Shown here in pieces: positions 5,758 through 19,222 of a DNA stretch of 21,842 nt. Made by a program: the position numbers and the translations under genes. The notes under the pieces were generated by a model, which saw only the letters and a program-made list of their open reading frames with translations, did not search any database and was not told the origin of the DNA. This DNA comes from a virus (Duplodnaviria > Heunggongvirae > Uroviricota > Caudoviricetes): the IMG/VR virus record IMGVR_UViG_2531839433_000003, one strand, 5' to 3'. Within the stretch, counting starts at the first letter, position 1. Each line of letters starts with the position of its first letter.

Positions 5758-6611
5758 GCACCATCCTGAAATGGGCGGGAAATAAAACCGCCATTATGTC
5801 CGAACTGAAAAAACACCTTCCTGCTGGCCCGCGACTGGTTGAACCTTTCGCGGGTTCCTGTGCTGTGATGATGGAGACGGATTACCCCAGCTATCTGGTT
5901 GCGGATATTAATCCTGATTTAATCAACCTCTATAAAAAGGTTGCTGCTGATTGTGAATCGTTTATATCTCGCGCCAGAGTTTTATTTGAGATCGCAAACA
6001 GGGAGGTGGCTTATTACAACATAAGGCAGGAGTTTAATTACTCCACTGAAATTACTGATTTCATGAAAGCGGTATATTTCCTGTATCTCAATCGTCACGG
6101 TTACCGTGGTTTATGTCGCTATAACAAGAGCGGGCATTTCAACATTCCCTACGGTAATTATAAAAATCCGTATTTCCCTGAAAAAGAAATTCGCGCATTT
6201 GCAGAAAAGGCCCAGCGAGCAACGTTTATCTGCGCCAGCTTTGATGAAACGCTGGCGATGTTGAAGGCGGGGGATGTGGTGTATTGCGATCCGCCGTATG
6301 ACGGTAAGTTTTCCGGCTATCACACTGATGGTTTCACTGAAGATGACCAGTATCACCTGGCATCTGTTCTTGAACATCGGTCATCAGAAGGACATCCGGT
6401 CATTGTTTCTAACAGTGACACATCCCTGATCCGTTCGCTGTATCGCAATTTTACTCACCACTACATCAAGGCAAAACGCAGCATCGGTGTGGCAGCTGGC
6501 GAGGGTAAATCAGCAACAGAAATCATTGCTGTTTCCGGGCCGCGCTGCTGGGTGGGATTTGATTATTCGCGTGGCGTGGATAGTTCTGCCGTGTACGGAG
6601 TACGTGCATGA
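5754..6611 (+). CDS. dam: DNA adenine methyltransferase, Dam-like (GATC N6-adenine)
   Basis: N-terminal LKWAGNK SAM-binding motif and DPPY catalytic motif (DNA 6288..6299); collinear resemblance to E. coli Dam. Translationally coupled on both sides. Confidence 0.85.
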
Positions 6612-9022
6612 GCCATGCCGATATGAACAACTGCTGCGGCTTTAACGAGGCTGCCGCATCGTTCTCATGGAACAGCCCGAAAAAGGCCATTAACCCTTAT
6701 CTGGACCCGGCGGAAGTTGCGCCGGTTTCTGCGCTTTCAAACCTGATCACTCTGTACGCTGCCGATAACGAGCAGGAACAGCTGCGCCGCGAGGCACTGA
6801 GTGATCAGGTCTGGGAGCGTTATTTCTTTAATGAATCCCGTGATCCTGTCCAGCGCGAAATGGAGCAGGATAAGCTCATTAGTCGGGCAAAGCTGGCGCA
6901 TGAGCAGCAGCGTTTTAATCCAGATATGGTCATTCTGGCGGACGTCAATGCCCAGCCTTCCCATATCAGCAAGCCGCTGATGCAACGTATTGAATACTTC
7001 AGCAGCCTTGGCAGGCCAAAGGCTTATTCCCGCTATTTGCGTGAGACGATTAAGCCATGTCTGGAACGGCTGGAGCATGTACGCGACAGTCAGCTATCCA
7101 CTTCTTTTCGCTTTATGGCAAGCCATGAAGGGCTGGACGGCCTGCTGATTCTGCCTGAAATGAGTCAGGATCAGGTGAAACGCCTGTCCACCCTTGTTGC
7201 TGCGCATATGAGCATGTGCCTTGATGCAGCTTGTGGCGATTTGTATGCCACCGATGACGTTAAGCCTGAAGAAATCCGCAAGACATGGGAAAAGGTGACA
7301 GCAGAAACCCTGCGACTGGATGTCATACCGCCTGCGTTTGAGCAACTCCGCCGGAAAAGAAACCGCCGTAAACCCGTGCCTTATGAACTCATTCCGGGTT
7401 CGCTGGCGCGTATGTTGTGCGCCGACTGGTGGTACCGGAAATTATGGAAGATGCGTTGCGAATGGCGGGAAGAGCAGTTGCGTGCTGTTTGCCTGGTCAG
7501 CAAAAAAGCATCTCCCTATGTCAGCTATGAAGCCGTGATGCATAAACGTGAGCAGCGCCGTAAGTCGCTGGAGTTTTTCCGTTCTCATGAACTGGTGAAC
7601 GAAGACGGCGACACGCTGGACATGGAGGATGTGGTAAACGCCAGCAGCAGCAACCCTGCGCATCGCCGCAATGAGATGATGGCCTGTGTTAAAGGTCTGG
7701 AGCTTATCGCGGAAATGCGTGGTGACTGCGCCGTTTTCTACACCATCACCTGTCCGTCACGTTTCCATTCCACGCTAAATAACGGCAGGCCCAACCCGAC
7801 CTGGACAAATACGACGGTAAGACAAAGCAGTGATTATCTGGTCGGCATGTTTGCTGCATTTCGTAAGGCGATGCACAAAGCCGGATTGCGCTGGTATGGC
7901 GTGCGGGTGGCTGAGCCGCATCATGACGGTACAGTTCACTGGCACCTGTTGTGTTTTATGCGCAAAAAAGATCGCCGCGCCATTACTGCTTTGTTGCGTA
8001 AGTTTGCCATTCGTGAAGACCGCGAGGAGCTGGGTAATAACACGGGACCACGCTTTAAGTCTGAGCTGATAAACCCGCGCAAAGGTACGCCAACAAGCTA
8101 CATCGCGAAATACATCAGTAAGAACATTGACGGGCGTGGTCTGGCTGGCGAGATCAGCAAGGAAACGGGTAAATCCCTGCGTGATAACGCTGAATACGTT
8201 AATGCCTGGGCGTCTCTGCATCGTGTTCAGCAATTCCGCTTCTTTGGCATTCCGGGGCGTCAGGCTTACCGTGAACTGCGATTGCTGGCTGGTCAGGCGG
8301 CAAGGCAACAGGGGGACAAAAAAGCAGGTGCGCCGGTACTGGATAACCCGCGCCTTGATGCAATCCTGGCTGCTGCTGATGCTGGTTGTTTTGCCACCTA
8401 CATCATGAAGCAGGGCGGCGTACTGGTTCCCCGCAAATATCACCTCATCAGAACTGCTTATGAAATCAACGAAGAACCGACCGCATATGGCGATCACGGT
8501 ATTCGTATTTATGGCATCTGGTCACCCATTGCAGAGGGCAAGATCTGCACTCATGCGGTGAAGTGGAAAATGGTTCGTAAGGCCGTTGACGTTCAGGAGG
8601 CGGCAGCCGACCAGGGCGCTTGCGCCCCTTGGACTCGTGGCAATAACTGTCCCCTTGCTGAAAATTTGAGCCAACAAGGGAACGACAAATCAGCTGATGG
8701 GGATACCAGAACGGACATTACCCGCATGGATGACAAGGAGTTGCACGATTACCTGCACAGTATGAGCAAAAAAGAGCGCCGGGAACTGGCTGCAAGGTTA
8801 CGCCAGGTGAAACCGAAACGGCGTAAAGACTACAAACAGCGAATTACAAACCATCAGCGACAGCAGCTCGTCTATGAACTGAAGTCCAGAGGATTTGATG
8901 GCAGCGAGAAAGAAGTCGATTTACTCCTTCGCGGCGGCAGTATTCCGTCAGGAGCAGGCCTGCGTATCTTCTATCGGAACCAGCGTTTGCAGGAAGATGA
9001 TAAGTGGCGGGAGCTGTATTAA
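6608..9022 (+). CDS. Rolling-circle replication initiator, P2 gpA / 186 RepA family
   Basis: 804 aa with the metal-binding HWHLL motif (7936..7950) and active-site tyrosine motif YIAKYISK (8099..8122). Start overlaps the dam stop. Confidence 0.85.
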
Positions 9023-9766: not shown

Positions 9767-10192
9767 CTACTTAATTGAGTCCAGTAACAAGTTACAGTTA
9801 CTCTCATTGTAGAGAGAACGAGCAATTAGTGTTACCTGCTTTCCATTTATTCCCGGCTTATCCCATAACACAGCTTCTTGCGACGCCACAAATTCAGCAT
9901 AATCAATTATGCGTTGTTCGTGATCTGGTTCCTCATAGCCAAAGTATGAGAGCGCATCGTTGTAAGCGTGGTAAGCTGCTTTCTGTAATATCTTGATATC
10001 GGCTGTAGGTACTTGCCCCGTGTAGCTAGGATCTAATTGTGTGCTACTGCCATAGAATGCACATGAAAGGTAAGATATTGATTTCTGTTGAGCTTTAGTT
10101 CCTTTCTCATAGTTTTTAGCTGTTACCGCCTGAACTGGGACGCTAACAAAGCTTGCAACCAGAATTAAAATTAATACGTAAAAGCTTTTCAT
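9767..10192 (-). CDS. Secreted/periplasmic protein of unknown function, 141 aa, Sec-type signal peptide
   Basis: N-terminus MKSFYVLILILVASFVSVPVQA followed by a polar mature region; GAGG 5 nt upstream. AT-rich, leftward, at the position and orientation P2 uses for old. Confidence 0.6.
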   Translation of the reverse strand: MKSFYVLILILVASFVSVPVQAVTAKNYEKGTKAQQKSISYLSCAFYGSSTQLDPSYTGQVPTADIKILQKAAYHAYNDALSYFGYEEPDHEQRIIDYAEFVASQEAVLWDKPGINGKQVTLIARSLYNESNCNLLLDSIK

Positions 10193-10534: not shown

Positions 10535-10553
10535 GGCGTGGCGGGGATACGAG
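10535..10553. other. Probable cos site (P2/186-type cohesive-end sequence)
   Basis: ggcgtggcgggga matches the first 13 nt of the P2/186 cohesive end as I recall it (GGCG[A/T]GGCGGGGAAAGCA). It is embedded in a GC-rich structured island between the replication side and the portal side, where cos lies in P2. Confidence 0.45.
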
Positions 10554-10780
10554 CGCGCGCCGCGGGTTGAAATAGTAAAATTCACTTAGCCTCAGGCCCG
10601 CTGATGGTTTTCTTCTGAAAGGGAGGGCGCGTTTTTGTGCAATCTTGTTTGAAGGGATTTAAATAAATGTTGAATGTGTTCCGGAGTTGGCTGTAGATTT
10701 AGTGTTCTGTCACAAGTTGCAGTGATAGGTAGCAAACCTTTAAAAGGTTCTGCTATTGTTTCATTAAAGATTTATAGTCT

Positions 10781-11380
10781 TTGTCCGAAAATGACATTAA
10801 AGTAGTCGCCTTTAATGTCGTAAGCATGAAGGACAGAGAATTGAACTTAGAGCAGATTGCCAGTCAAAGTATAAGTAACCTTCAGTTTCTCCTCGATACT
10901 TTGAAGATGCCGTTGGCTGTTGGTCCAATCAGTGATGAAGACTATGTGATCCTGACCACAGGATATGCTCAGCTAGAATGGGATTATGGTTTTTCTCGGT
11001 TTGGCAATCGAAGTGATAAGTTTGAATTTTGTTTGAAGCTCCTTGCGGGGCCACTTAGGCATATCCCTTCTGGCGCAGCTATGTGCACCTTTGACGAGGA
11101 CGCTGGAGTCATAGAGATCCATTTTGTGGAATCTTTTGTGAAAGATGATGACGTAGAGCACCCTCTTTACGGCAACATGTTCATGGTTACATTGTGGGCG
11201 GTATATCTTTTTGGTAGCGCGGTTGGGTGTCAAGAGATTCGGATCCCTGAAGCCCTGAATCAAAAAGTTGCTGACCACTATAAAAAATTTGGTTTTAAAG
11301 GTGATATAAGCTTGCTTTCGGCACCTTTTGCTACAATAACTGATGTAGTAAGACGCTACATTACTTCTAAGAAACAGTAG
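10781..11380 (+). CDS. Hypothetical protein, 199 aa from the TTG at 10781 (184 aa if the ATG at 10826 is used)
   Basis: Long ORF in the AT-rich region between cos and the portal gene; start codon uncertain and no clear ribosome-binding site. No family recognised. Confidence 0.45.
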   Translation: MSENDIKVVAFNVVSMKDRELNLEQIASQSISNLQFLLDTLKMPLAVGPISDEDYVILTTGYAQLEWDYGFSRFGNRSDKFEFCLKLLAGPLRHIPSGAAMCTFDEDAGVIEIHFVESFVKDDDVEHPLYGNMFMVTLWAVYLFGSAVGCQEIRIPEALNQKVADHYKKFGFKGDISLLSAPFATITDVVRRYITSKKQ

Positions 11381-11459
11381 ATAAATTTTTGCGCAGTGCT
11401 ACAATGCTGCGCCAAACATCCACCACCGGATGATGAGGCTTGACCTCTAAGAGGAAATC

Positions 11460-11639
11460 ATGACTATGACGCATAGTGACAAGAAAGCTCAGAAGCATTA
11501 CTCAGTATCTGATGTTTTCAGCCGTATGGGCGTCGCGATGGAAGAACTACTTCAAGCGGCCCCACATATGATGCAGGACTGCAAATTTGAAGGAAATGAG
11601 CTGCATGGTAAGCTCAAAGAAAAGCAGAAAGCTGCTTAA
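11460..11639 (+). CDS. Small hypothetical protein, 59 aa
   Basis: GAGG 5 nt upstream of the ATG; followed within 25 nt by a strong intrinsic terminator. Below the ORF-track length cut-off; translated by hand. Confidence 0.5.
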   Translation: MTMTHSDKKAQKHYSVSDVFSRMGVAMEELLQAAPHMMQDCKFEGNELHGKLKEKQKAA

Positions 11640-11661
11640 TTCCATGAAATGCGTTTTGCAT

Positions 11662-11688
11662 GAAGCCCGGTAATACCGGGCTTTTTTA
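11662..11688 (+). terminator. Rho-independent terminator
   Basis: Hairpin agcccgg(taata)ccgggct followed by TTTTTT; sits between the convergent small gene and the portal 3' fragment. Confidence 0.7.
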
Positions 11689-11694
11689 TGCTTG

Positions 11695-11815
11695 CTAGTC
11701 AGTATTAAGCTCATATGGATTGAATCGGACTACCTCTTCACCAAGCCATTCATTTAGCTCCAGCAATCGCTTTTGTAACGGTACTATTTCGTTTCTTGTG
11801 AAGACGCGACTGGCC
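11695..11815 (-). pseudogene. Portal gene (P2 gpQ type) 3' fragment, separated from the rest by the IS66-family insertion
   Basis: Minus-strand frame read by hand through the IS junction encodes ...RLLELNEWLGEEVVRFNPYELNTD then a stop at 11695..11697. Confidence 0.5.
11808..11815. repeat. Target-site duplication gactggcc, left copy
   Basis: Identical 8-mer directly abuts both IS ends (11808..11815 and 14515..14522). Confidence 0.8.
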
Positions 11816-11845
11816 GTAAGCGGCTCGTCAGAACCGTATTGATAT

Positions 11846-13417
11846 TTACTGAGAGCTCAGATCAACTTTCCAGGGCAACAGATCGCGTACCCGGTTTGCC
11901 GGCCAGTCCTGGATATGTTCAATGACGTAGCGCAGCCACTTTTCTGGCTCCACATTGTTCAGACGGCATGTGCCGATCAGCGAGTACAACACCGCCGCAT
12001 GTTCACCACCGCTGTCGGAACCCGCGAACATCCACTTTTTCCGGCCTACGGCCACTCCCCGTAAGGCGTTCTCTGCGATGTTGTTGTCGATTTCCACCCA
12101 GCCATTACTGCAGTACACGTTCAGTGCATCCCACTGTTTCAGCAGGTATGCGAACGCTTTTGCCGTATCTGAGTGACGCGACAGTGTTTTCATCTGTTGC
12201 TGTATCCAGTCATACAGTGACTGCATCAGTGGCGCGGCTCTGGTTTTTCTTGCCGCCAGACGCTGTTCTGCTGAACAGCCCCGGACCTCTGCCTCGATGG
12301 CATACAGTTCACCGATACGCTGCAGGGCTTCCGTGGTGATGTCGGTGGGCGCTCTTGCATGCACATCGTGGATTTTTCTCCGGGCATGAGCCATACACGC
12401 GGCTTCCGTTATTCTGCCGGATTCGTATAACGCCCGGTAACCACCGTAAGCATCGGCCTGAAGCACACCGCTGTAACCGGCCAGGTGATTTTGTGGATGG
12501 ATACCTTTCCGGTCCGGACTGTACGCGAACCAGACCGCCGGGGGCATCTGTGAACCGGCGTTACGGTCATCACGGACGTAGACCCACAGCCGGGCTGTCC
12601 GGGTTTTACCGCTGCCCGGCTCCTGGACCGGGACGGGGATATCATCAGCATGGACTTTACCGGGCATCAGCACATACTGGCGCAGGACGTCATACAGCGG
12701 CTCCAGTAGTTCAGCAACGGCACCTGTCCAGCGCCCCAGTGTGGCACGGCTCAGCTCCACACCCTGACGGCGGTATATCTCTGACTGGCGGTATAACGGC
12801 AGATGGTCTGCATATTTTCCGGTGACGACATGGGCCAGGAGCCCCGCTCCGGCATAACTGCGTGCAATGGGTTTTGAAGGTACTGGTGCCTGCACGATAT
12901 GGTCGCACCGACAACAGGCCAGTTTCGGACGTTGTGTTTCGATAACCTTAAAGGCGCTGCTGATAAGCTCCAGTTGCTCTGACACATCACATCCCAGAGA
13001 ACTGAGTTCACCACCACAGGCAGGACAGCATTCCTCTTCCGGCCGGATAACCCGGGTTTCACGGGGAAGTGAGGCCGGTAACGGTTTACGGGCTGAAGAC
13101 TGGCGCAGGGCGGATGGCAGTACCGGGTCATATTGCTCACCCAGCGTTTCCGCCATTTCTTCCTGAAGTGCGCTGATTCGCTCCTGTGCTTCCTGTATCT
13201 GCCGTTCGGTTTTTGCACGAAGTTTTTCTGAGCTTTTACCGAACTGCATACGTTGCAGTTTCGCAACCAGCGCCTTCAGCCGGTTGATTTCGGAAGCATA
13301 AGCCGCCACCCGCTGTGAGAGCAGGCGGTTGTATTCAGCCATCTGGCGTATGGTGTCCTGTTGCGTCTGCAACAGTGCCCGCAGGCGGGCGTTCTCATGA
13401 GCAAGTGAGGTGTCCAT
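11846..13417 (-). CDS. tnpC: IS66-family transposase (TnpC)
   Basis: 523 aa with an N-terminal coiled-coil/leucine-zipper region and a Cys-rich segment, as in IS66-family TnpC. Confidence 0.85.
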
Positions 13418-13436
13418 ATCCTCACTTTACAACGGG

Positions 13437-13784
13437 TTATATGCGGATTCCAGCGCGTTCCGTTCGTTTCGGGTGCTTCCAGTTGATACCTTCAAGAAGC
13501 ATGGATAACTGAGCCGGAGTAAGGTGCACCTTGCCGTCACGGGTGACTGGCCAGACGAAGCGGCCCCGCTCCAGGCGTTTGGTGAAGAGGCACAGTCCGT
13601 CACTGTCAGCCCACAACACTTTTATCTGGTCACCCCGGCGTCCGCGGAAGATGAACAGGTGTCCGGAGAACGGGTCATCCTTCAGGACGTTCTGAACTTT
13701 TGATGCCAGGCCGTTAAAGCCATTTCGCATATCGGTGATACCTGCAACCAGCCAGATACGCGAACCTGCAGGGAGAGATATCAT
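13437..13784 (-). CDS. tnpB: IS66-family accessory protein TnpB (Orf2)
   Basis: 115 aa, MISLPAGSRIWLVAGITDMR..., as in IS66 Orf2; ATGA overlap with the upstream ORF. Confidence 0.8.
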   Translation of the reverse strand: MISLPAGSRIWLVAGITDMRNGFNGLASKVQNVLKDDPFSGHLFIFRGRRGDQIKVLWADSDGLCLFTKRLERGRFVWPVTRDGKVHLTPAQLSMLLEGINWKHPKRTERAGIRI

Positions 13785-14461
13785 CAGTGGCTGCTCCCTT
13801 TTATTTCGCGGATAAGTGTCTGTAATAACGCCGGCGTCAGTTTACCTTTAAGCCTGAGAGTTCCGGCCGGCAGAACCAGCTCACAACACAGACTGTCGGA
13901 CGGTGTATTTATCTGCTCTGGTTCCTGTGCGGGGGCCGGGATTTTATTATCCGGCTCCGGCGTTAACGTCACGGGAAGCAGTGCCGGCATATTTTTTCCG
14001 GAAGGCAGCAGGCCACCTTTCCGGTATTGATGGCGCCAGTTGAAGAGCAGGTTATCGTTGATTCCGTTTTCCCGGGCGATCTGCGCCACACAGGCTCCGG
14101 GCTGCAGTGACTGCTCCACTAAGGCGATTTTAAACTCATAAGGGAAGTTGGGCCGCCGGGGACGTTTTTTTACCACGGGGGCTTCGGATATAACGGTGCT
14201 TTCAGGACGTACGACTGGTACCGTGGAAAATTGTCCGTAAAGGCAGGCATCAAGTTCCTGCTCCGACATGCCTGCGGGCAAAGGCCACGAAAGGCCAGCT
14301 CTCCGAAAGCGCACGAACATACTACAAACTGTTGATTTTGGTACACCCAGGCGACGCCCGGCCACAACCCGGGGTAAATGTTCTTCAAAGTGAAGACGTA
14401 AAGCTTCAGTGATCCAGGTCCGGTGTTTCATACGATAGTGTCCATTAAAAATGATGGACAT
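13784..14461 (-). CDS. tnpA: IS66-family accessory protein TnpA (Orf1); start uncertain
   Basis: First ORF inside the IS, leftward, coupled to tnpB. The true start may be the internal Met (MKHRTW...). Confidence 0.6.
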   Translation of the reverse strand: MSIIFNGHYRMKHRTWITEALRLHFEEHLPRVVAGRRLGVPKSTVCSMFVRFRRAGLSWPLPAGMSEQELDACLYGQFSTVPVVRPESTVISEAPVVKKRPRRPNFPYEFKIALVEQSLQPGACVAQIARENGINDNLLFNWRHQYRKGGLLPSGKNMPALLPVTLTPEPDNKIPAPAQEPEQINTPSDSLCCELVLPAGTLRLKGKLTPALLQTLIREIKGSSH

Positions 14462-14514
14462 TATTTTTGTAGAGCCGGAGGAAACAGACCAGACGGTTTA
14501 AATGAGCCGGTTAC

Positions 14515-14522
14515 GACTGGCC
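14515..14522. repeat. Target-site duplication gactggcc, right copy
   Basis: Identical to 11808..11815. Confidence 0.8.
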
Positions 14523-17344: not shown

Positions 17345-18178
17345 ATGACAGTGAAAGCAAAGCGTTTTCGCATCGGGGTGGAAGGTGCCACCACCGACGG
17401 ACGCGAAATCCAGCGTGAATGGCTGGAACAGATGGCAGCCAGCTACAACCCGGCGGTGTATACCGCGCTGATTAACCTTGAGCACATCAAGTCTTATCTG
17501 CCGGACAGCACCTTTAACCGCTACGGCAAGGTGACGGCGCTGTTTGCTGAAGAAATCACGGAAGGTCCGCTGGCAGGCAAGATGGCGCTGTATGCCGACG
17601 TTGAGCCAACGGAGTCCCTGGTGGAACTGGTGAAAAAAGGCCAGAAATTATTCACCTCTATGGAAGTCAGCCCGAAGTTCGCTGATACGGGCAAAGCCTA
17701 TCTGGTCGGCCTGGCTGCCACTGATGACCCTGCCAGTCTGGGTACGGAAATGCTGACATTCAGCGCCAGTGCAGCCCATAACCCGCTGGCAAACCGCAAG
17801 CAGAATCCTGCCAATCTCTTTACCGCTGCAGAGGAAACGGTGATCGAACTGGAAGAAATCCAGGACGACAAACCGTCCCTGTTTGCCCGCGTCACGGCGC
17901 TGTTTACCAAAAAAGAGCAATCCGATGACGCCCGGTTCTCTGATGTGCATAAGGCCGTGGAGCTGGTCGCCACTGAGCAGCAGAACCTGAGCGCACGCAC
18001 CGAAAAATCCCTGTCTGAGCAGGAAGAACGCCTGTCTGAGCTGGAGACTGCCCTGCAGGCACAGCAAACCGCCTTTAACGAACTGGTGGACAAGCTGAGT
18101 CATGAAGACAGTCGCCAGGACTACCGCCAGCGTGCAACAGGCGGTAACGCCCCCGCTGACACTCTGACCAATTGCTGA
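17345..18178 (+). CDS. Capsid scaffolding protein, P2 gpO type
   Basis: 277 aa (P2 gpO is 284 aa), divergent from the terminase gene, with an acidic coiled-coil C-terminal half. Confidence 0.8.
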   Translation: MTVKAKRFRIGVEGATTDGREIQREWLEQMAASYNPAVYTALINLEHIKSYLPDSTFNRYGKVTALFAEEITEGPLAGKMALYADVEPTESLVELVKKGQKLFTSMEVSPKFADTGKAYLVGLAATDDPASLGTEMLTFSASAAHNPLANRKQNPANLFTAAEETVIELEEIQDDKPSLFARVTALFTKKEQSDDARFSDVHKAVELVATEQQNLSARTEKSLSEQEERLSELETALQAQQTAFNELVDKLSHEDSRQDYRQRATGGNAPADTLTNC

Positions 18179-18194
18179 TGGAGCACAAAACCCG

Positions 18195-18572
18195 ATGAAG
18201 AAGAATACCCGCTTTGCTTTTAACGCTTACCTGCAGCAGCTGGCGCGTCTGAACGGTGTGGCAGTTGAAGAACTGTCCAGCAAGTTCACCGTGGAGCCGT
18301 CTGTGCAGCAGACGCTGGAAGACCAGATCCAGCAGTCCGCCGCTTTCCTGACGCTGATTAACGTCACGCCAGTGACTGAGCAGTCCGGTCAGCTGCTGGG
18401 GCTGGGAGTTGGCAGCACCATTGCCGGAACCACTGACACCACCGCGAAAGAGCGTGAACCTGTCGATCCGACGCTGATGGTCGATGTGGAATATAAATGC
18501 GAGCAGACCAACTTTGACACGGTGCTGACCTACGCGAAGCTGGACCTGTGGACGGGGTGGGCTCTTAGATGA
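18195..18572 (+). pseudogene. Major capsid protein (P2 gpN type), N-terminal about 125 aa only
   Basis: Begins MKKNTRFAFNAYLQQLARLNG...KFTVEPSVQQTL like P2 gpN, but terminates after 125 aa where about 357 are expected. Confidence 0.7.
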
Positions 18573-18573
18573 T

Positions 18574-18678
18574 GCGGAATGGACCATTACGACTCTGACG
18601 CATACCGTCAGCCCCGATAACGGTTTTACAACCAGTCTGGAGCTTGAAGTGAGGATTGATGATTTCGAAATGGAATGA
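18574..18678 (+). pseudogene. Possible C-terminal remnant of tail gene D fused out of frame to the capsid fragment
   Basis: The +1 frame reads ...TITTLTHTVSPDNGFTTSLELEVRIDDFEME then stop, about 90 nt upstream of ogr, where D lies in P2. Assignment is by position and frame only. Confidence 0.3.
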
Positions 18679-18768
18679 TTCTTCGCAATGGAGAACTTTT
18701 AAGTTTGCAAAATGGAATAATGCGGTATCATTATTGTGAATTTAGCAAAAATGGGGAGAACTCGAAAA

Positions 18769-18987
18769 ATGATGATTTGCCCACTGTGTGGAAGTGCCGC
18801 CCATACTCGCAGCAGTTTTCAGGTATCTTCATTGACCAAAGAACGTTACAACCAGTGCCAGAACATTAACTGCAGCCATACTTTTGTTACCCATGAAACT
18901 TTTGTTCGTTCGATTGCAACGCCAAAAGAGTCAAATCCGGTTCAGCCGCATCCAATGAAATCAGGACAGGTGGCGCTCTCTCTTTGA
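18769..18987 (+). CDS. ogr: Ogr-type zinc-finger late transcription activator
   Basis: 72 aa, MMICPLCGSAAHTRSS...KERYNQCQNINCSHTF, parallel to P2 Ogr (CPLC...KERYHQCQNVNCSATF); last prophage gene before attR. Confidence 0.85.
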   Translation: MMICPLCGSAAHTRSSFQVSSLTKERYNQCQNINCSHTFVTHETFVRSIATPKESNPVQPHPMKSGQVALSL

Positions 18988-19009
18988 CGCTGCCGCCATT
19001 TTGTCGCCA
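18988..19009. repeat. attR core: 22-bp direct repeat cgctgccgccattttgtcgcca
   Basis: See attL; begins at the base after the ogr stop codon. Confidence 0.7.
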
Positions 19010-19074
19010 TCGTTAAAAAACAGTGTTTCTAACATCATGATTTTAAACAGCTTAAATTTCAGGCAACAAAAAAC

Positions 19075-19111
19075 CCATCAACCTTGAACCGAAATGGCGG
19101 GGTTGATGGGC
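19075..19111 (-). terminator. Probable ybjL rho-independent terminator
   Basis: 10-bp stem cccatcaacc / ggttgatggg; on the minus strand it is followed by six T. Confidence 0.45.
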
Positions 19112-19222
19112 TCCACAAAATGGGGACATCAAAGAAAAGCAGTGGCACTAATTAAGACTGATGCCCTGCGGAAAAGTTCTGCGGTTGTGCAAAAAAATTT
19201 CATTTTCAGGGCAACTTCAGTT

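Follow-up and report, generated by a model that had tools for sequence, protein, structure and literature searches.

Temperate phages of the P2 type carry short, exchangeable gene cassettes in the interval between the replication gene gpA and the portal gene gpQ, and this interval was published as P2 defence hotspot #1 by Rousset et al. (2022; PMC9122126) and also defined by Vassallo et al. (2022; PMC9519451). Its known cargo includes old and tin of P2 itself as well as retrons, DprA-PRTase, DUF4238 and three-hypothetical-protein systems (PMC9122126), and the PD systems (PMC9519451); the hotspots hold non-defence cargo too (PMC9122126). Here we describe one filling of this slot, a pair of genes that we call ORF-A (open reading frame A, 10826–11380, + strand) and ORF-B (11460–11639, + strand), in a stretch of viral DNA of 21,842 nucleotides, IMG/VR record IMGVR_UViG_2531839433_000003 (hereafter the window). 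Comparison of the pair with its relatives revealed a self-contained accessory module of two genes that is horizontally mobile and occurs in P2-like and lambdoid prophages across Enterobacterales. Several human E. coli isolates, e.g., NZ_CP025859, have chromosomes that match the window with 100% identity. The pair is therefore already catalogued, though not studied, because NZ_CP025859 is listed in the table of hotspot loci (supplementary file 6) of PMC9122126, where WP_021523861, which is ORF-B, and its neighbour are entered as “hypothetical + hypothetical”. The site is known, and the new part is the content of the slot.

The position of the pair in the window is that of the published hotspot, with gpA at 6608–9022, cos at 10535–10553 (strand not assigned) and the portal stop at 11695. 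The 19-nt cohesive end, GGCGTGGCGGGGATACGAG, was located by alignment to the P2 cos junction, to which it is identical at 34 of 42 positions when the upstream flank is included, and the same 19-mer was found upstream of the gene pair in loci L002 and L008–L010. An earlier note on this DNA, made from the sequence alone, had proposed both this cos and this portal stop, and both were confirmed, as was its estimate of about 1.1 kb between them, which comes to 1141 bp. Its statement that the P2 portal gene ends roughly 100 bp from the cohesive end was incorrect, as the distance from the P2 cos (1–19) to the Q stop (187) is 167 bp. The interval is indeed AT-rich, with a G+C content of 0.40–0.45 across 10600–11600 versus 0.52–0.56 in the phage core genes. 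The earlier note also regarded the two genes as cargo next to the known P2 accessory site; the first part of that description holds, but the genes are inside hotspot #1 rather than beside it. The pair shares with the known cargo its place by cos in the gpA–gpQ interval, its short low-GC format (one to three genes), the possession of its own signals, and the swapping of such cassettes among near-identical prophages. It differs in lying on the portal side of cos, whereas old and tin of P2 are on the gpA side, and in that ORF-A and ORF-B match no known or candidate defence model.

The cos–portal interval of related prophages was surveyed, as the earlier note had suggested, in 80 IMG/VR loci whose portals share at least 92% identity with that of the window, 74 of which have cos downstream of the portal. 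The gap in these 74 sibling loci ranges from 0.17 to 3.5 kb; it was filled (0.5–3.5 kb) in 72 of them and had the empty, P2-like length (~166 bp) in the other two. Among its relatives P2, with a near-empty gap, is the exception and not the rule. A total of 49 distinct slot contents was observed in the 74 loci, and 78 of 80 cargo ORFs of the sibling loci run from cos towards the portal, as do those of the window. Matches to known defence systems in these slots include retron RT-Toprim (E 2e-217), AbiU, TIR/ThsB, GmrSD, a Cap4 nuclease, SieB and DprA, and among the other contents are AIPR, PIN, Schlafen and KAP NTPase. The ORF-A/ORF-B pair itself was present in only 1 of the 80 loci. On the portal side of cos, homology among the siblings (>70 prophages, loci L025–L104) extends only 6–7 bp further than the cohesive end, to 10559/10560, so that the variable cargo begins almost at the cut site. 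One prophage of Pectobacterium was observed to have two additional genes, for an Arc/RHH protein and an ORF6N-domain protein, between cos and the ORF-A/ORF-B pair (L007, 4235–5502), which indicates that the slot can hold stacked cassettes.

The two genes travel together. An ORF-B homologue is located directly downstream of the ORF-A homologue in 21 of 21 A-bearing loci, the identities of the two proteins fall in step (A/B, 75/73, 69/64, 49/49 and 39/34%), and even distant ORF-A relatives (25–37% identity) keep a partner of 50–60 residues. Such strict pairing and co-divergence argue for a physical or functional couple. The surroundings of the pair, on the other hand, vary considerably. It fills the P2 cos–portal gap in E. 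coli and Pectobacterium, directly follows an S24 repressor in Serratia symbiotica, separates int from xis in phage mEp460 and is found at a prophage end in Salmonella. In Cronobacter prophages it comes after the Q antiterminator and before the lysis genes; its pre-lysis position in Enterobacter prophages is comparable, and phage Eeyore has it after Q. Distant members are next to integrase or tail-fibre genes. A position after the repressor is of the type known from lambda rexAB, and those before the lysis genes resemble the positions of late-operon morons. The likeness to rexAB is one of position only and does not extend to the proteins, which are not related. P2 lacks the pair, and the variant in the window is rare, being found in 11 of 5426 complete E. 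coli genomes. In all 11 carriers the cassette was 99.8–100% intact, and in six of them the prophage is dead, broken by an insertion sequence (IS), with all six sharing the same ISCro1 insertion. These data support the view of the earlier note that the genes form a cargo cassette, in that they are missing from P2 and most relatives, move as a unit and match no core phage family; the outcome that it had named as a refutation, homologues that turn out to belong to the conserved phage core (a small terminase, for instance), was not what we found.

Sequence searches identified little that is related to ORF-A. It had no Pfam or NCBIfam match at E ≤ 10, and among the PHROGs it matched only phrog_4350, of unknown function. 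The family is small, with 29 clusters in 5.8 billion proteins (from Escherichia, Pectobacterium, Pantoea, Edwardsiella, Lonsdalea and Serratia) and 77 representatives in 1.84 billion proteins. The earlier note had recognised neither protein, and the profile searches that it proposed likewise gave no family of known function; the structure prediction that it also proposed was more informative for ORF-A. An AlphaFold2 model made with 25 homologues was confident (predicted local distance difference test, pLDDT, 83.8; predicted template-modelling score, pTM, 0.82) and has the order of strands and helices seen in GNAT (GCN5-related N-acetyltransferase) proteins. Foldseek comparison of this model with the PDB gave 203 matches at E ≤ 1e-3, with KacT at the top followed by NatD, AtaT, SpeG and TacT3, and with aminoglycoside acetyltransferases also among the matches, while a viral library returned only generic GNATs. 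Based on the model, ORF-A is a highly divergent protein of predicted GNAT fold; the fold is clear, the subfamily is not. The tRNA-acetylating toxins TacT3, KacT and AtaT are level with NatD and SpeG, i.e., the structure score does not separate toxins from other GNATs.

Conserved residues of ORF-A fall at positions expected of a GNAT enzyme. E102, on strand 4 of the model, is invariant in the family, as is H112-P-L-x-G116-x-M118 in the loop between strand 4 and helix 3, which is the position of GNAT motif A. Y152, G156 and F157 (YxxxGF) are invariant in the close family and align with GNAT motif B, e.g., fYxkfGF of Naa50, and Y152 is one of only two residues that are at least 90% conserved across 58 distant members. 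The tyrosine altered in the catalytic mutants AtaT Y144F and KacT Y145F in the PDB has a comparable sequence position to Y152.

ORF-B encodes a protein of 59 residues and is preceded by GAGGA, in keeping with the good ribosome-binding site described in the earlier note. It matches phrog_2741, of unknown function (E 1.6e-30), and a profile search found 92 clusters, in Enterobacterales. No useful Pfam or NCBIfam match was obtained, the sole entry being NCBIfam PcsB, far below threshold (17 bits versus a cut-off of 450); a Pfam scan of ORF-B and 48 relatives gave only noise, and the ORF-B profile found only designed proteins in the PDB. The AlphaFold2 model, which is of low confidence (pLDDT 67), has a single helix at residues 16–39 with disordered tails. 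The family has a conserved core motif, F-x-R-M-G-V-A-M-E-E-L-x-x-A-A-P, with G24, A26 and G50 invariant and a C-terminal Ala-Ala that is nearly so. It is basic overall (median isoelectric point, pI, 9.9), and the copy in the window is near neutral (pI 7.9). A stretch of 38 residues of ORF-B is 60% identical to residues ~57–94 of gp59 (327 aa, phrog_11133), an early protein of the lytic Klebsiella phage KpV52, a Jedunavirus (L004, 2833–3816), whose gene heads an HNH/exonuclease/SSB operon. Similar B-like proteins occur in Pectobacterium phage PEAT2 and Acinetobacter phage LAPP1, and a search of the phage collection found no ORF-A match in Jedunavirus, PEAT2 or LAPP1. The B-like segment of gp59 is perhaps a host-binding helix that the two proteins have in common, or else a decoy that the lytic phages have captured.

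The cassette has several candidate control features. The start of ORF-A is ambiguous, as previously noted: a 199-aa reading from TTG 10781 to 11380 exists, ATG 10826 gives 184 aa (the start chosen by PGAP) and TTG 10841, which has AAGGA 7 nt upstream, gives 179 aa. The true start is probably ATG 10826 or TTG 10841, since residue 21 is where the PHROG match starts and where about half of the aligned homologues have their first residues, MN(L/Y)EQ. The leader (10778–10839, + strand) can form a long nested hairpin that encloses both ATG 10826 and the AAGGA Shine-Dalgarno sequence of TTG 10841. The leader RNA folds with −22.9 kcal/mol (z = −4.6; none of 200 shuffles folded as well), and the inner 10-bp repeat of the hairpin is GACATTAAAG/CTTTAATGTC. 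The hairpin is only partly kept in Pectobacterium, and it may limit the translation of ORF-A.

Between the two genes is a promoter-like element, TAGATA-16-TGcTACAAT (11378–11412, + strand), which scored 9/12 in a scan, has TG upstream and resembles an extended −10 promoter. It overlaps the palindrome GCGCAG-N10-CTGCGC (11391–11412) with the TACAAT hexamer inside it, exactly as the earlier note had described. The palindrome was considered as a conserved operator or RNA hairpin, and a hairpin is seen there in the RNA fold (z = −2.4). We rejected both since L008, a variant from E. coli, has changes in the two half-sites (GCACAG...CTACGC) that do not compensate each other, while the E. coli and Pectobacterium variants alike retain the −10-like TGnTAnAAT. 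The cassette is closed by an intrinsic terminator (11662–11690, + strand) that fits the strong terminator of the earlier note, with a stem at 11662–11684 of 10 pairs (6 G-C), a 3-nt loop and a T run; a hairpin and T run follow ORF-B in 5 of 5 aligned variants.

We tentatively propose, at somewhat less than an even chance, that the pair works like a toxin–antitoxin or abortive-infection module. This is because the slot is a defence hotspot, the partner is obligate, the catalytic residues look intact and control features are present. A promoter-like element ahead of ORF-B, the folding leader, a partner predicted to consist of a helix with disordered tails and ending in Ala-Ala, the acidic nature of the A family beside the basic B family, and the intact state of the cassette in every E. 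coli carrier are all consistent with such a module. ORF-A would act as an acetyltransferase effector that depends on acyl-CoA, E102 serving as its general base and Y152 as its general acid, and ORF-B, which would probably fold on binding, would bind and restrain it. ORF-B would be made in excess from its own promoter, with the structured leader keeping ORF-A translation low, and would be short-lived, possibly owing to the Ala-Ala at its C terminus. Shutdown of host gene expression by a superinfecting phage would then let ORF-B decay, and freed ORF-A would acetylate an essential, probably basic, target so that the infection aborts. The narrower version of this proposal is that the pair is an anti-phage abortive-infection system new to description, an acidic, sequence-orphan GNAT held by a labile single-helix partner, and that the B-like segment of the lytic Klebsiella, Pectobacterium and Acinetobacter phages is a captured decoy antitoxin by which they neutralise it; we consider that version unlikely. 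Our literature search found no GNAT-based defence system in P2 hotspots.

A number of observations weigh against the proposal, and many of them emerge from comparison with the GNAT-DUF1778 toxin–antitoxin modules (TacAT, AtaRT, KacAT and ItaRT). These also consist of two genes, for a GNAT-fold protein of ~170–180 aa and a small partner; their toxins are among the best structural matches of ORF-A, and the tyrosine of YxxxGF has a similar position in the sequence. There is, however, no sequence relationship to ORF-A. Searches of the PDB with the ORF-A profile gave nothing or only sub-threshold GNAT matches (E 0.1–4), and none of TacT, AtaT, KacT and ItaT, all of which that database holds, was found even at E ≤ 10. 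Acetyltransf_1 was touched by one of 58 ORF-A family members (E 0.006). As judged by sequence, then, ORF-A fails every test for known GNAT toxins. Its motif A is atypical, HPLxGxM and not Q/RxxGxG/A, with the central glycine kept and the first and last residues different, and the family is acidic (median pI 5.0), a weak indication that it is an unlikely tRNA binder. The partner is different too. GNAT-toxin modules have been recognised by an adjacent DUF1778/RHH (or DUF4065) antitoxin gene (PMC9177977). Pfam scans gave ORF-B no DNA-binding domain and no membership of DUF1778/RHH, nor is it DUF4065; it is downstream of the enzyme gene and not upstream, the gene order being reversed with the enzyme first. 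Neither ORF-A nor ORF-B matched any of the 5027 models of PADLOC-DB v2 at E ≤ 10. The role of the C-terminal Ala-Ala as a degron is putative, an idea taken from ClpX/ssrA recognition. Lastly, the B-like segment inside a 327-aa early protein of lytic phages and the late-operon position of the pair in some lambdoid phages (Cronobacter, Eeyore) fit a role in the phage's own cycle equally well. The pair thus falls outside the GNAT-DUF1778 family but may nonetheless function as its members do. The more specific reading of ORF-A as a tRNA-acetylating toxin was downgraded because of its acidic pI and because the structure score does not separate toxins from other GNATs.

If the pair does serve the phage, it could be an enzyme with an adaptor for host takeover or counter-defence, in which ORF-B would be a targeting helix that docks on a conserved host or defence protein and ORF-A would acetylate and inactivate that protein. 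There is a precedent for a phage-borne GNAT acting on a protein target in the anti-CRISPR AcrVA5, which acetylates and thereby inactivates Cas12a, although AcrVA5, unlike the pair, consists of one small protein and needs no partner. The late-operon and pre-lysis sites in Cronobacter, Enterobacter and Eeyore (after Q) would suit such a role, as would the occurrence of the B-like segment in lytic phages lacking an ORF-A match, and in the fold searches the scores of N-terminal and protein acetyltransferases are on a par with those of the toxins. We nonetheless regard this explanation as possible but on balance unlikely. In P2-like phages the pair has its own promoter-like elements and terminator and is oriented opposite to the late operon, an arrangement typical of cargo expressed in the lysogen; defence systems, and not anti-defence genes, make up most of what the slot holds, and the cassette is kept intact in dead prophages. 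Lysogenic conversion appears somewhat less likely again. ORF-A would then acetylate a cationic compound (a polyamine, an aminoglycoside or a peptide-nucleotide antibiotic) to the benefit of the host, and ORF-B would be a regulator or unrelated. Enzymes acting on cationic substrates tend to be acidic, as ORF-A is (pI ~5), SpeG and aminoglycoside acetyltransferases are among its structural matches, and the hotspots do carry cargo other than defence genes, but ORF-B as a bystander is difficult to reconcile with strict pairing and co-divergence over the whole family, and the family is confined to prophage accessory sites.

The toxin–antitoxin-like features that led to our proposal, and the intact state of the cassette in degraded prophages, also fit a pure addiction module, one that stabilises the prophage or the slot by post-segregational killing and plays no part against phages. 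Once integrated, however, a prophage hardly needs to be stabilised, and the pair moves among sites known for defence and moron cargo, and we consider this explanation improbable. More improbable by far is that the pair represents conserved core phage genes, such as a packaging accessory or small terminase, or non-functional ORFs. The genes do adjoin cos and the packaging genes, but a core role is excluded by the slot survey, in which the same position held 49 unrelated contents and the pair, already missing from P2, was almost always absent; the P2 small terminase gene, M, is elsewhere in the relatives. Against non-functional ORFs, both proteins keep their invariant residues down to 35–40% identity.

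The window as a whole contains a degraded P2-like prophage flanked by rcdA/ybjJ and ybjL. Its gene order is integrase, a HEPN protein with a GmrSD nuclease, CI and early genes, gpA, a 62-aa ORF with DinI, a 141-aa signal-peptide protein (− strand), cos, ORF-A, ORF-B, portal, terminase and scaffold genes, a truncated capsid gene, a fragment of gene D and ogr. ISCro1 (IS66 family, annotated with tnpA, tnpB and transposase; 11816–14513, − strand) interrupts the portal gene, of which only the last 120 bp adjoin the cassette. That C-terminal fragment (11695–11815, − strand) is a partial portal in RefSeq and is collinear with the intact portal of L002 to 11815. The 9-bp target duplication CGACTGGCC flanks ISCro1 at 11807–11815 and 14514–14522, and the element bounds the cassette and is not part of it. 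At the far end (17345–19200) the prophage is a remnant in which the capsid gene is truncated after the scaffold gene and most late genes are gone, leaving the gene D fragment and ogr.

Two other sites in the prophage carry accessory genes. The HEPN-domain protein and the GmrSD-type restriction endonuclease (1142–2954, − strand) are encoded between the integrase and the CI repressor, and in P2-like phages this interval constitutes a second defence site, one that is less populated. On the gpA side of cos, the 141-aa protein (9767–10192, − strand) has an N-terminal signal peptide and belongs to phrog_7437, of unknown function. In NZ_CP172871 an HNH endonuclease replaces the 141-aa gene and the ORF-A/ORF-B pair is unchanged, which indicates that the two sides of cos swap their cargo independently.

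The location of the pair being known, the value of the finding is in its content, a compact, sequence-orphan pair that moves between the classic accessory sites of two unrelated types of temperate phage across Enterobacterales. Should it not be a defence system, it joins the hundreds of uncharacterised morons already catalogued in the hotspot. If it is a true defence or toxin–antitoxin module, the anti-phage repertoire would gain an acetyltransferase effector whose partner is of a new kind, and the recruitment of GNAT toxins would be seen to involve antitoxins from beyond DUF1778 and DUF4065. In that case, the B-like segment of the lytic phages would also provide an immediate means to test phage counter-defence.

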